DNA of 64,000 nucleotides from Enterobacteria phage RB18. The DNA is taken from the sequence record NC_054906.1, one strand, 5' to 3'. Under the pieces are notes generated by a model that saw nothing but the letters and a program-made list of their open reading frames with translations, was not told the origin of the DNA and searched no databases. Of this stretch, positions 3,484-6,392 are shown one piece after another. How positions within the stretch are numbered: position 1 is the stretch's first letter; every line of letters starts with the position of its first letter. Both the position numbers and the translations under genes were made by a program.

Positions 3484-3513
3484 CCAAAAAGCCCCAACCT
3501 TTCGGTCGGGGCT
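3484..3513 (-). terminator. rho-independent terminator (minus strand) after the tRNA-like RNA
   Basis: Minus-strand hairpin AGCCCCGACC-GAAA-GGTTGGGGCT followed by TTTTTGG; paralogous to 2928..2958. Confidence 0.6.
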
Positions 3514-3564
3514 AAGCCTTGCGGCAACCTTGTCGGGGTTCCACCTGCTAAGGCAAGTGTTTGT

Positions 3565-3656
3565 ACGAAACGCCGGGATTCGAACCCGGTTATTAAGCAG
3601 TTGACGCTACTTAATATTTTTAAAAGGCCATATCTCGACCATATCCGAACGTTCCG
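3565..3656 (-). ncRNA. tRNA-like small stable RNA (T-arm and acceptor stem present, no canonical anticodon arm)
   Basis: Minus strand has T-arm CCGGG-TTCGAAT-CCCGG and a 7-bp acceptor-like pairing CGGAACG/CGTTTCG, but the internal region does not fold as a standard cloverleaf; T4-type phages encode such stable RNAs next to the tRNA cluster. Confidence 0.4.
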
Positions 3657-3822
3657 TCAAAAACGCTACTCGGCTTACGGCAAAGATATTTCCTCGAATC
3701 GATAATTCGGTGCGCCGTTTCTGCTGTGATGTAAGAGGGCATCAATAAACGCAAAGATTATTAACGCAATTCCTTACTCAGGGAACATCAGTCCGACGAC
3801 TTACCGGTAGCGACCCGGTTTC

Positions 3823-4173
3823 TTAATATTCTTTTAAAGCATCAATCTGCTCACGGCGTTTACGCCACAAATCAATTGCTTCATACGCGGATTCAGCATT
3901 TCGAATTAGCCGGCATTTATGTAAAGACTTATGATTTTGATATTGTGTAGATAACGGAATTTTATCTAAAAGGTCTTTACGTTCAAAGTATTCGTAACCA
4001 TCTAAGCCAAATGAACGATTTTTAAGAAATTGCCAATGACCATATTCGTTTTCGATATAAACATAATCTGCGTGCTGATAAAGCAAATTAATTACGCGTT
4101 CAGAAATAACAGTGTCATTGTGATTAAAATAGAATGTTAAATCATGAACTACTAAATAAACATTACCTTTCAT
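3823..4173 (-). CDS. hypothetical protein (116 aa) within the tRNA region
   Basis: ORF with ATG start between the tRNA-like RNA and tRNA-Arg. Confidence 0.5.
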   Translation of the reverse strand: MKGNVYLVVHDLTFYFNHNDTVISERVINLLYQHADYVYIENEYGHWQFLKNRSFGLDGYEYFERKDLLDKIPLSTQYQNHKSLHKCRLIRNAESAYEAIDLWRKRREQIDALKEY

Positions 4174-4191
4174 ATTTTCCTCACTTATAAT

Positions 4192-4267
4192 TGGTCGAGG
4201 CAGTAGGGATCGAACCTACGACCCAGGACTTAGAAGGTCCTTGCTCTTCCTTCTGAGCTATGCCCCG
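4192..4267 (-). tRNA. tRNA-Arg (anticodon UCU)
   Basis: Hand-folded cloverleaf: acceptor CGGGGCA/TGCCTCG, D-stem GCTC/GAGC, anticodon loop CTTCTAA, T-loop GGTTCGATCC, encoded CCA. Confidence 0.8.
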
Positions 4268-4271
4268 TAAT

Positions 4272-4347
4272 TGGGGTGACCGATGGGAGTCGAACCCATG
4301 ACTACGAGAATCACAATCTCGAGTTCTACCAACTGAACTACGGCCAC
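4272..4347 (-). tRNA. tRNA-His (anticodon GUG)
   Basis: Hand-folded cloverleaf: acceptor GTGGCCG/CGGTCAC, anticodon loop TTGTGAT, T-loop GGGTTCGACTCCC, encoded CCA. Confidence 0.75.
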
Positions 4348-4461
4348 ATTAATACCTACTCCAACAATCAAGATGTCTTCACACGAAATTAAGAGAAGAG
4401 TGATCAGTTCAACCCTTATAATCGCGTCAAGTAGATATTAATGTGACAGTTGTCACAAATT

Positions 4462-4536
4462 TGGCGGACGTGATAGGATTCGAACCTATAACCAATCGCT
4501 TAACAGGCGATCGCTCTGCCATTGAGCTACACATCC
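4462..4536 (-). tRNA. tRNA-Asn (anticodon GUU)
   Basis: Hand-folded cloverleaf: acceptor GGATGTG/CACGTCC, anticodon loop CTGTTAA, T-loop AGGTTCGAATCCT, encoded CCA. Confidence 0.75.
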
Positions 4537-4540
4537 AAAT

Positions 4541-4627
4541 TGGTGGGGAGTGATGGAGTCGAACCACCCGAGTCGCAATGACAATGGATTTACAGTCCAC
4601 ACCGCTACCTCTACGGGATAACTCCCC
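4541..4627 (-). tRNA. tRNA-Tyr (anticodon GUA), class II with long variable arm
   Basis: Acceptor GGGGAGT/ACTCCCC, anticodon stem-loop GTGGA-CTGTAAA-TCCAT, 15-nt variable arm, T-loop GGTTCGACTCC, encoded CCA. Confidence 0.75.
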
Positions 4628-4633
4628 TTAATT

Positions 4634-4708
4634 TGGTGGCCCTGGGTGGAATTGAACCACCATCTGGCGATTATGAGTCGCTTGCTTGAACCTTCCAGCT
4701 ACAGGGCC
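4634..4708 (-). tRNA. tRNA-Ile (anticodon CAU, Ile2/lysidine type; Met not excluded)
   Basis: Acceptor GGCCCTG/CAGGGCC; anticodon stem-loop GCGACTCATAATCGC is the Ile2-type context; encoded CCA. Confidence 0.7.
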
Positions 4709-4709
4709 T

Positions 4710-4785
4710 TGGTGCTGATTGACGGAATCGAACCGCCGACCTTCTCATTACAAGTGAGTTGCTCTACCTATTGAGCTAAATCAGC
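4710..4785 (-). tRNA. tRNA-Thr (anticodon UGU)
   Basis: Acceptor GCTGATT/AATCAGC, D-stem GCTC/GAGC, anticodon loop CTTGTAA, T-loop GGTTCGATTCC, encoded CCA. Confidence 0.8.
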
Positions 4786-4790
4786 AAAAC

Positions 4791-4880
4791 TGGCGGAGGC
4801 GATAGGATTTGAACCTATGAGTCGCCGGAGCGACTGCCGGTTTTCAAGACCGGTGCATTAAACCACTCTGCCACGCCTCC
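4791..4880 (-). tRNA. tRNA-Ser (anticodon UGA), class II with long variable arm
   Basis: Acceptor GGAGGCG/CGCCTCC, anticodon loop CTTGAAA, long variable arm, T-loop GGTTCAAATCC, encoded CCA. Confidence 0.8.
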
Positions 4881-4886
4881 AAATAT

Positions 4887-5537
4887 TTATATATTGTTAA
4901 TTTGATTTAGAATTCTTTTTGCTTGAGTATGACTTACGCCAATATGCTTAGCATATTTAGACAATTCGCCACGTTTAGAAAAATCATATAATTTAGAAAT
5001 TTCTATTCTTCTTTTTCTTTCATCCGCAGAAACTTTTGCTTCGTTCGCTTTTGCTATTTTACGTTTAGCTTCTTGAGAATGAGTTTTACCAGCAAAGCCA
5101 TTCTTCATTAATCCATTTGAAGACCATCCTTTTAATTTTCCGTTAGAATGTGCCTTTTTAACACCCAATGAAATTAATTCGCGCTGCTGATCTGTCATAG
5201 GATAATTATTTATATGGTCCCATCCACCTTCACCTCCAAGTTTTAAATTATACACATCTGGTCTATTTAAAAACTCTTCTGTGACAATATTTTTCTCGGC
5301 TTCAAGCATAGATTCTTTATCGTCAAAATACTCTAATATTTCTTTAGAAAAATTTTCTATACCATATTTATCTTGGGCTCTTTTTAATAATTTACCAGAA
5401 CCCATATATCCATCATCTAAATTTTCGGTAGAATGCACACCAATATAAATTTTATTATTAATTTTATTTGTTATTTTATAAAGATAAAAATGCATATCAG
5501 TCCCTAATAAAGAACTGAGCGTCTCACGACGAGTCAT
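4887..5537 (-). CDS. segB: GIY-YIG homing endonuclease SegB-like, inserted within the tRNA cluster
   Basis: N-terminal GIY-YIG signature YLYKITNKINNKIYIGVHS...GYMGSG; basic C-terminal DNA-binding-like region; sits between tRNA-Gly and tRNA-Ser as segB does in T4-type phages; true start may be the internal ATG at 5495, which has a better Shine-Dalgarno. Confidence 0.8.
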   Translation of the reverse strand: MTRRETLSSLLGTDMHFYLYKITNKINNKIYIGVHSTENLDDGYMGSGKLLKRAQDKYGIENFSKEILEYFDDKESMLEAEKNIVTEEFLNRPDVYNLKLGGEGGWDHINNYPMTDQQRELISLGVKKAHSNGKLKGWSSNGLMKNGFAGKTHSQEAKRKIAKANEAKVSADERKRRIEISKLYDFSKRGELSKYAKHIGVSHTQAKRILNQINNI

Positions 5538-5541
5538 AAAT

Positions 5542-5615
<74 letters not shown>

Positions 5616-5620
5616 AAATT

Positions 5621-5707
5621 TGGTGCGAGAAGTGGGACTCGAACCCACAAGGAAATCATTCCGCAGCATTTTAAGTGCTGTGCCTTTACCAATTTGACCA
5701 TTCTCGC
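5621..5707 (-). tRNA. tRNA-Leu (anticodon UAA), class II
   Basis: Acceptor GCGAGAA/TTCTCGC, anticodon loop CTTAAAA, long variable arm, T-loop GGGTTCGAGTCCC, encoded CCA; abuts tRNA-Gln as a Gln-Leu dimer. Confidence 0.8.
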
Positions 5708-5708
5708 G

Positions 5709-5781
5709 CTGGGAATAAAGGACTCGAACCTTTGCATCCTGGAATCAAAATCCAGTGCCTTACCAACTTGGCTAATTCCCA
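5709..5781 (-). tRNA. tRNA-Gln (anticodon UUG)
   Basis: Acceptor TGGGAAT/ATTCCCA, anticodon stem-loop CTGGA-TTTTGAT-TCCAG, T-loop AGGTTCGAGTCCT; CCA not encoded. Confidence 0.8.
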
Positions 5782-5793
5782 ATTATTAACAAA

Positions 5794-5811
5794 GGCTCTC
5801 AAATAAGAGCC
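5794..5811 (-). terminator. hairpin plus T-run (minus strand) between ORF 5868..6392 and tRNA-Gln
   Basis: Minus strand GGCTCT-TATTTG-AGAGCC followed by TTTGTTAATAATT. Confidence 0.4.
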
Positions 5812-5867
5812 CTTGATGATAGAGGGTATTAATCAGTGCGGTATGAGTTAATAATAACAAATAATTC

Positions 5868-6392
5868 TTAAAGCAAATTAAACATTTTAACGGTCGGCAA
5901 AACAATTTCTTTTTCTATATAAGAGTATTTAACACTCTCAACTACGCGCAGAAAATCATAATCATAATATTCAGAAGCACTGCCTAAAATATTAATAAGT
6001 CCTTCAAGCACTTTATTACAATTCACAAAGAATAAGTCAAATACACGTTCTTCATCTTCTTCAGATTTATTACCAAGGTCAACTTCTATATCAAAGACCT
6101 TTTTAATGAATTCTGGATAAAGCTGGTCTGAGAACAGTCCTTCAACCAAGTATTCATAGATAAAAAGCGATTGCTCGCTGAACAAGCCATTACCACAATA
6201 ACGTTCAGCTTTAGTACTAGAATGTCTGCTTTTAAACTTCTTTAAAAGATATTGGAACTGTAAGATTTCATGCTCTTCTACGCCAAACAGTGTTTTAGTT
6301 TTATAGTTGTCACCATCATTTTCCCAGGTAGTGACATCAATTACGTAACCCTGCGGAATTGTAGTACCTAAACAAATATTCATTTTCACCAC
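5868..6392 (-). CDS. hypothetical protein (174 aa)
   Basis: ORF in minus-strand array upstream of the tRNA cluster. Confidence 0.5.
   Translation of the reverse strand: MVKMNICLGTTIPQGYVIDVTTWENDGDNYKTKTLFGVEEHEILQFQYLLKKFKSRHSSTKAERYCGNGLFSEQSLFIYEYLVEGLFSDQLYPEFIKKVFDIEVDLGNKSEEDEERVFDLFFVNCNKVLEGLINILGSASEYYDYDFLRVVESVKYSYIEKEIVLPTVKMFNLL

Follow-up and report, generated by a model that had tools for sequence, protein, structure and literature searches.

A SegB-like GIY-YIG homing endonuclease gene of predicted hybrid origin within the tRNA gene array of Enterobacteria phage RB18

Among free-standing homing endonucleases (HEs), SegB of phage T4 belongs to the few with a mapped site and demonstrated homing. 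The enzyme cleaves tRNA genes at their 3' ends, immediately 3' of CCAR (GGTTCRANTCC...CCAR), its preferred cleavage site has been mapped within tRNA-Asn of T2L, and preferential inheritance of flanking markers has been experimentally shown only for this protein (PMC2330249). For T6 SegB, both nuclease activity and its dependence on Y17/G19 have been demonstrated experimentally, and the enzyme drives segmental amplification of tRNA and anti-defence genes against Septu, OLD, and ToxIN; that SegB homologues are associated with tRNA genes was already published in the same work (PMC13096335). In the T5orf172 HE genes, homology-driven exchange of nuclease and DNA-binding modules has been described (Barth et al. 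2023, PMC10448857). Here, we analyzed a gene that interrupts the tRNA array in a 64,000-nucleotide (nt) stretch of Enterobacteria phage RB18 DNA (NC_054906.1; the whole stretch is hereafter called the window). Our preferred reading, to which we assign a probability of about 0.7, is that it encodes a functional, free-standing GIY-YIG HE of 202 amino acids (aa) translated from the ATG at 5495, and that it is a natural recombinant between segB and a lineage named class-B in this analysis, i.e., the SegB-like endonucleases of the tRNA-Gly / tRNA-Pro slot. GenBank already contains the gene itself from about 50 phages, under the inconsistent labels 'SegB-like', 'truncated SegB-like', 'segD', and 'group I intron endonuclease', and our literature search found no description of a SegB/class-B hybrid or of the class-B Gly/Pro lineage. 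Its interest chiefly lies in a natural swap of catalytic and DNA-binding modules with an identifiable crossover.

The window is a segment of a Tequatrovirus (T4-like) genome, and its positions 4100-6000 are 98-99% identical to TadeuszReichstein, AR1, KIT03, and others. ARAGORN found an array of 10 co-oriented tRNA genes in the order Gln, Leu, Gly, Ser, Thr, Met(CAU), Tyr, Asn, His, and Arg, with an open reading frame (ORF) of 216 aa, counted from its first ATG (4887..5537, minus strand), placed after the third. The flanking genes are tRNA-Gly(UCC), with encoded CCA (5542..5615, minus strand; ARAGORN anticodon tcc and Rfam tRNA), and tRNA-Ser(UGA) (4791..4880, minus strand; ARAGORN anticodon tga), which begins 6 nt past the HE stop codon. 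The product matched the Pfam families GIY-YIG (PF01541, 26.8 bits, cut-off 22.6) and SegE_GIY-YIG (PF19835, 25.8 bits, cut-off 25), and PHROG 314 'homing endonuclease' (E = 1.5e-55). In BLASTP, it was 83% identical to T4 SegB across 117 aa (residues 15-131 of the 216-aa form), the alignment stopping at T4 residue 117. Such significant similarity to SegB and GIY-YIG proteins ruled out a chance ORF and, together with the ARAGORN calls, bore out the preliminary description, made from the letters of the window, of a GIY-YIG gene set between tRNA-Gly and tRNA-Ser.

The catalytic domain, of T4/T6 segB type, spans aa 1-93 (5217..5495, minus strand), as delimited by nt identity, the AlphaFold2 (AF2) model, and Foldseek. 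It has a single difference from T6 SegB, K43, which is R in T6. The mean predicted local distance difference test (pLDDT) value of the model was 84, and that of the catalytic domain (residues 1-90) was 95-98. The top three Foldseek matches in the PDB were to I-TevI's catalytic domain (1MK0/1LN0), with a prob of 1.0 and a template-modeling score, TM(target), of 0.63-0.65. A phmmer search of the protein against PDB sequences gave zero matches, I-TevI being reached only by the profile search and Foldseek, and for the catalytic domain only. In the family profile search, residues Y6, Y17, G19, E67, and N83 aligned with Y6, Y17, G19, E75, and N90 of I-TevI, and they were invariant among 120 homologues. 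Like I-TevI, encoded in the T4 td intron, the predicted protein has an N-terminal GIY-YIG domain, a flexible linker, and a C-terminal NUMOD3-type element followed by a terminal helix-turn-helix (HTH). Unlike I-TevI, it is free-standing, shows no evident zinc finger, is ~22-26% identical in the catalytic domain, and presumably targets tRNA genes. Judged from its sequence and modeled structure, the gene most likely encodes an active homing endonuclease.

Comparison with T6 segB (AP018814 65756-66421) and T4 segB (NC_000866 71253-71918) showed where the likeness to these genes ends. The leader and the catalytic domain (5541-5217) were 97-100% identical to T6 at the nt level, and T4 segB was 100% identical from 5478 onward, its leader being different. 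In a sliding-window analysis, the identity changed from T6/T4-like to that of the class-B loci L015 and L017 at a 9-nt zone, CATATAAAT (5208..5216, minus strand), which is common to T6 segB and the class-B genes (all three lineages). Past this crossover, identity to T4/T6 segB fell to 30-60%, and positions 5207-4890 were 76-96% identical to L015/L017 (about 85% overall). The proteins behaved alike: beyond residue ~96 of the 202-aa form, only one NUMOD3-like motif could be aligned with T4/T6 SegB (FAGKTHSQEAKRKIAK vs FLNKHHTPETINKMKE), and the relatives P0002-P0006 and others, all full-length, matched the window protein in their C-terminal halves, their N-terminal halves being only about 65% identical. 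Because the identity switches at CATATAAAT and the C-terminal half matches class-B relatives, we regard the window gene as a T4/T6-class-B hybrid. On nucleotide identity it is a natural recombinant, in which a T4/T6 SegB catalytic module was joined to a class-B DNA-binding module in the class-B slot. Unlike the exchanges in the T5orf172 genes, which concern another nuclease family and other phages, the swap here lies within the SegB family and has an identifiable 9-nt crossover. The designation 'SegB-like' in the preliminary description therefore holds for the catalytic half, which is essentially that of T4/T6 SegB; the gene is not a straightforward orthologue, since its C-terminal half and its slot differ. 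A match to the T4 late-promoter consensus at the crossover, TATAAATA (5214-5207, minus strand), was considered as a separate candidate and taken as coincidence, since T4 differs at this point (CATGTAAAT; GTAAATA) and no usable start lies downstream. The same motif also occurs in T6, and it is probably coincidental in AT-rich DNA.

The class-B DNA-binding half covers aa 97-202 (4890..5207, minus strand), assigned by nt identity to Jiaodavirus-type genes, and includes the linker, the NUMOD3-like motif, and the HTH. The NUMOD3-like motif (aa 134-149; 5049-5096, minus strand) scored 20.1 bits with Pfam NUMOD3, near the threshold (cut-off 20.4). The C-terminal HTH is predicted at aa ~176-201 (4893-4970, minus strand); AF2 placed helices of this half at 141-154, 157-174, 178-184, and 189-201. 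The protein ends in a conserved tail, DFSKRGxLSKxAKxIGVSHTQARRI, with A/V before RR in the class-B definition and IGVSHTQA(K/R)RI as the window-type motif. Contrary to this, T4 and T6 SegB have a tail of the type …NSQFGMMWIH…IPEGWFKGRKMKF instead of the HTH (…IGVSHTQAKRILNQ…), and the linker of the window protein is ~19-37 aa shorter than theirs.

Class-B genes were found in Klebsiella phage Mineola (YP_010096117), KP13MC5-5, and three Jiaodavirus-like metagenomic contigs, always in the arrangement tRNA-Gly(UCC), ~47-nt leader, gene, and tRNA-Pro(UGG), with the end of the ORF inside the tRNA-Pro 5' end. The window gene has the NUMOD3 and HTH tail of this lineage (HTH tail 87-97% identical), the insertion directly 3' of tRNA-Gly(UCC), and a ~46-nt hairpin leader of the same type. 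It lacks two class-B traits, the native catalytic domain and the downstream tRNA-Pro: over most of their length, the catalytic domains of the Jiaodavirus genes are ~57-80% DNA-identical to that of the window gene, and their ORFs run into the 5' end of a tRNA-Pro they keep. More distant class-B relatives sit directly after the 3' end of tRNA-Pro or tRNA-Met, a location that fits SegB-type cutting just 3' of CCAR (PMC2330249). A protein scan of IMG/VR added only 8 distant loci, none in a useful tRNA context. Separately, phage T2 carries between tRNA-Ser and tRNA-Met a 133-aa ORF, T2_137 (LC348380 67720-68121; L006:2429-2830), whose homology is confined to the class-B DNA-binding half (33% identity, E = 8e-16, VSHTQARKFLNK tail included) and which has no GIY-YIG domain. 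Its sequence suggests that a tRNA-cluster endonuclease has left either a remnant devoid of the nuclease or a DNA-binding derivative standing alone.

The insertion point was compared with phages lacking the gene. In T4 and T2, the empty site reads tRNA-Gly, 10 nt, tRNA-Pro, 2 nt, and tRNA-Ser. Homology to T4/T2 breaks 5 nt past tRNA-Gly (ATTTA) and resumes ~1 nt before the 5' end of tRNA-Ser; an 81-nt interval including tRNA-Pro is exchanged for a cassette of ~655 nt, and tRNA-Pro is absent from the window. The boundaries against the T2/T4 Gly-Pro-Ser site are precise, and the cassette starts directly after the tRNA CCA-A here, in T6, and in Jiaodavirus. In the phage collection, the class-B half was present at 97.5-99.4% identity in 54 Tequatrovirus records, all but one of which (53/54) share the same gene/tRNA-Ser junction, and 448 records contained an intact Gly-Pro-Ser site. 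This presence in a minority of genomes, along with exact boundaries, is the pattern typical of a mobile endonuclease gene.

The slot also bears on whether the gene is a plain T4/T6 SegB orthologue, with the same recognition site (T-psi-C arm ... CCAR; tRNA-Asn preferred), that was displaced by tRNA rearrangements. T6/T4 segB has virtually the same catalytic domain and leader, the NUMOD3 motif is common to both proteins, the gene adjoins a tRNA CCA end as in T6, and all class-B relatives are tRNA-associated; in addition, the window gene and T4/T6 segB have in common a single NUMOD3, co-orientation within the tRNA array, a start right after a tRNA CCA, and a hairpin that occludes the Shine-Dalgarno sequence. 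However, apart from NUMOD3, the C-terminal ~105 residues cannot be aligned to T4/T6 SegB and have homologues of their own in a conserved Gly/Pro slot. The positions differ as well: segB lies between tRNA-Ile and tRNA-Arg in T4 and between tRNA-Tyr and tRNA-Arg in T6, and here the gene follows tRNA-Gly in place of tRNA-Pro, tRNA-Arg being preceded by tRNA-His. We assessed the co-occurrence of endonuclease type with tRNA-Asn and tRNA-Pro on five array types inspected in full and on junction counts. T4 and T6, with canonical segB, have no tRNA-Asn; the window genome has no canonical segB and carries an intact tRNA-Asn(GUU) (4462..4536, minus strand), identical at 75/75 positions to that of T2, the preferred SegB target. 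An altered site preference would more readily account for an intact SegB-preferred site in a carrier of this gene. Taken together, these points make plain orthology unlikely. These sequence data suggest that the site preference of the hybrid differs from that of canonical SegB, and that the window genome would be a susceptible recipient for canonical segB.

Next, we considered the start of the coding sequence (CDS). As the preliminary description had said, and direct reading confirmed, the first ATG (5537-5535) nearly touches tRNA-Gly: 4 bases separate its A from the CCA end at 5542, which places the A 5 nt from the last tRNA base. The internal in-frame ATG (5495-5493), codon 15 of the 216-aa ORF, had been proposed instead, and this proposal was well supported. 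The Met at 5495 aligns with Met1 of both T4 SegB and T6 SegB, the closest non-identical homologues (P0002-P0004) are called as 202 aa, the CDSs annotated in RB51 and CM8 are of 609 nt, and a Shine-Dalgarno sequence, AGGGA (5505-5501), lies 5 nt ahead of this AUG. Consequently, the CDS we propose for the hybrid SegB-family GIY-YIG protein is 4887..5495 (minus strand; 202 aa + stop), based on the Met alignment and the annotation of homologues, and on sequence comparison ATG 5495 is almost certainly the true start. Database records thereby gain a corrected start codon, and their labels 'truncated SegB' and 'segD' are misleading.

The 46 nt ahead of this start (5496..5541, minus strand) form a leader that appears to be non-coding and is conserved as DNA in T6 and Jiaodavirus. 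It is identical in 4/4 Tequatrovirus copies, differs by 1 base from the stretch separating tRNA-Tyr from segB in T6, and shares 85-88% identity with the Jiaodavirus leaders. The latter have one extra T, which puts their upstream GTG out of frame, ending at a TGA just ahead of the ATG. In this light, the annotated 216-aa form from ATG 5537, which would be distinguished by the peptide MTRRETLSSLLGTD, has almost no chance of being the real product. The in-frame ATG does open an uninterrupted ORF in the Tequatrovirus copies and in T6; however, it has no Shine-Dalgarno sequence, and as it lies only 4 nt past the tRNA-Gly CCA, hardly any leader would remain after tRNA 3' processing. Moreover, the extension is frame-shifted in the Jiaodavirus relatives despite DNA conservation, T4 SegB, whose leader is different, starts at the Met aligned with 5495, and the functional numbering in T6, where the catalytic-dead mutant is Y17A/G19A, counts from the equivalent of this downstream Met (PMC13096335). 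The in-frame ATG 5537 is, therefore, probably not used. We also considered the 42-nt upstream stretch as a remnant of the tRNA-Pro 5' end, and rejected this because the same leader follows tRNA-Tyr in T6 and, in Jiaodavirus, tRNA-Gly in the presence of an intact tRNA-Pro.

Within the leader, a 9-bp hairpin, UCAGUUCUU/AGGGACUGA (5497..5518, minus strand), is predicted to sequester the Shine-Dalgarno AGGGA, which forms its 3' arm. The minimum free energy calculated with ViennaRNA was -14.5 kcal/mol (z = -2.07). The T6, Mineola, and L015 leaders fold into the same hairpin, with three one-sided changes that each preserve pairing. In T4 segB, a different leader contains an analogous hairpin occluding the Shine-Dalgarno sequence and the AUG (PMC2330249). 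The hairpin and the U-rich tract that follows, UAUGCAUUUUU, also scored as a weak intrinsic-terminator-like site, which could reduce the transcription that passes from the upstream tRNAs into the HE gene.

The same gene copies allowed us to address its integrity. Among the window, TadeuszReichstein, RB51, and CM8, there were 12 polymorphic codons, 11 synonymous and only 1 non-synonymous, and the RB51 and CM8 proteins were identical to the window protein. An apparent C-terminal difference in the CM8-type copies (tblastn coverage 1-208) proved to be an alignment-trimming artefact. This pattern strongly indicates, at the sequence level, that purifying selection maintains the protein, and it argues against an inactive relic, i.e., a decaying HE gene kept only through its position inside the tRNA transcription unit. 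Many phage HE genes do degenerate, the RB51 copy is labelled 'truncated SegB-like' in GenBank, and a nuclease-less relative of the DNA-binding half is present in T2; but the ORF is intact, the catalytic residues aligned with I-TevI are all kept, and 'truncated' reflects merely 202 vs 221 aa. We consider a relic, therefore, very unlikely.

Several points weigh against the reading of a functional, retargeted hybrid. For the C-terminal half, Foldseek gave no significant PDB match, only weak Fis-like HTH matches (prob <=0.15), and with no significant structural neighbor, the evidence for an HTH consists of the AF2 helices, a weak match to Pfam HTH_10, and motif conservation. In the catalytic half, the equivalent of I-TevI Arg27 has no unambiguous position in the alignment, K35 and R39 being the candidates. 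As class-B relatives follow various tRNAs (Gly, Pro, and Met), their DNA-binding half may, like T4 SegB, recognize some generic feature of tRNAs, and the module swap may alter site preference only, or nothing. The Jiaodavirus carriers retain tRNA-Pro, which indicates that its loss is not needed for self-immunity. Finally, the data fit either of two histories, a class-B gene with its 5' half converted by segB or a segB that acquired a class-B 3' half, and more than one order of events.

With regard to expression, T4 has a middle promoter just upstream of the tRNA cluster that transcribes the whole cluster, including segB (PMC2330249). In the window, the sequence ahead of tRNA-Gln matches T4 exactly and contains a putative T4-type middle promoter (5851..5877, minus strand), composed of the MotA-box-like TTTGCTTTA (5877-5869), 12 nt, and TATTAT (5856-5851). 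By analogy, this is the probable middle promoter of the tRNA operon. A sigma-70 promoter scan was uninformative, with 8 sites vs 7.1 expected, and no HE-specific promoter was identified in it. The downstream part of the unit consists of the remaining tRNAs, a 116-aa ORF, rnaD/rnaC homologues, and a terminator-like hairpin near 3510-3540.

By analogy with SegB, we infer the nuclease activity, target, and expression control of the hybrid as follows. The HE gene and the tRNAs would be transcribed together from the promoter that precedes tRNA-Gln, tRNA processing would free its mRNA, and the hairpin burying the Shine-Dalgarno sequence would keep translation low; low expression has been proposed as a safeguard for T4 SegB (PMC2330249). 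In a mixed infection, the enzyme would cut related genomes with an empty Gly-Pro-Ser site, within the Gly-Pro interval, at the 3' end of a tRNA or close to it, and repair templated by the HE-carrying genome would copy the gene in and co-convert neighboring tRNA genes, with tRNA-Pro replaced in the present case. Another possibility is that the main maintained role is not homing, and that the gene benefits the phage through breaks in the tRNA region, which would lead to amplification of segments with tRNA or anti-defence genes, as with T6 SegB (PMC13096335). The catalytic module is nearly identical to that of T6, strong purifying selection fits a useful function, and the flanking tRNA genes include tRNA-Tyr. 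Nonetheless, such a role is compatible with homing, the 54 vs 448 pattern and the precise cassette boundaries resemble a mobile element, and the window has a single copy, with no tandem repeat seen in the alignments. Amplification as the main role seems, thus, rather unlikely.

The tRNA arrays of T4, T6, T2, RB51, and CM8 are all different from one another, in agreement with the mosaic repertoire noted in the preliminary description. Moreover, the tRNA gene missing from each type's genome is kept by the other's, tRNA-Pro being missing here and tRNA-Asn in T4/T6. It is tempting to propose a natural retargeting, in which one SegB catalytic module with two DNA-binding modules occupies two slots (Gly/Pro and X/Arg), and mutual attack on carriers, with reciprocal tRNA replacement, is what chiefly makes the T-even tRNA repertoires mosaic; we hold this broader scenario as tentative and, on present data, doubtful. 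If the predicted homing operates, the hybrid would offer a concrete mechanism for the differing tRNA sets among near-identical T-even phages. Besides, the same catalytic module (about 99% DNA-identical) with another DNA-binding module and slot provides a ready comparison for which half of a GIY-YIG enzyme sets the target.

Other features of the region were recorded. Two small stable RNAs of T4, rnaD (species 2) and rnaC (species 1), have homologues at ~3565-3822 (minus strand) that are 97% identical to T4; Rfam had no family detecting them, and its scan of the region gave tRNAs only, otherwise sub-threshold noise. The 116-aa ORF (3823-4173) lies upstream of these homologues, and T4 has no such ORF at the same position. 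Between tRNA-Asn and tRNA-His there is a 114-nt non-tRNA spacer (4348-4461, minus strand) that holds an inverted repeat, TGTGACAACTGTCACA, and a promoter-like pair, TTGACG...TATAAG; RB51 lacks both this spacer and tRNA-His, its tRNA-Arg directly following tRNA-Asn. The gene called tRNA-Met(CAU) by ARAGORN (4634-4708, minus strand) has equivalents in RB51 and TadeuszReichstein annotated as tRNA-Ile reading AUA, in the manner of the tRNA-Ile of T4, whose CAU anticodon is modified. Genes of several endonuclease families have the tRNA cluster as a hotspot. CM8 (MK962750 68983-69591; L019:2028-2636) has an HNH endonuclease gene in the tRNA-Gln position heading the same array, and its array is devoid of tRNA-Tyr and tRNA-Asn. 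In PBM-1, a further insertion of ~550 nt is present within the tRNA region.

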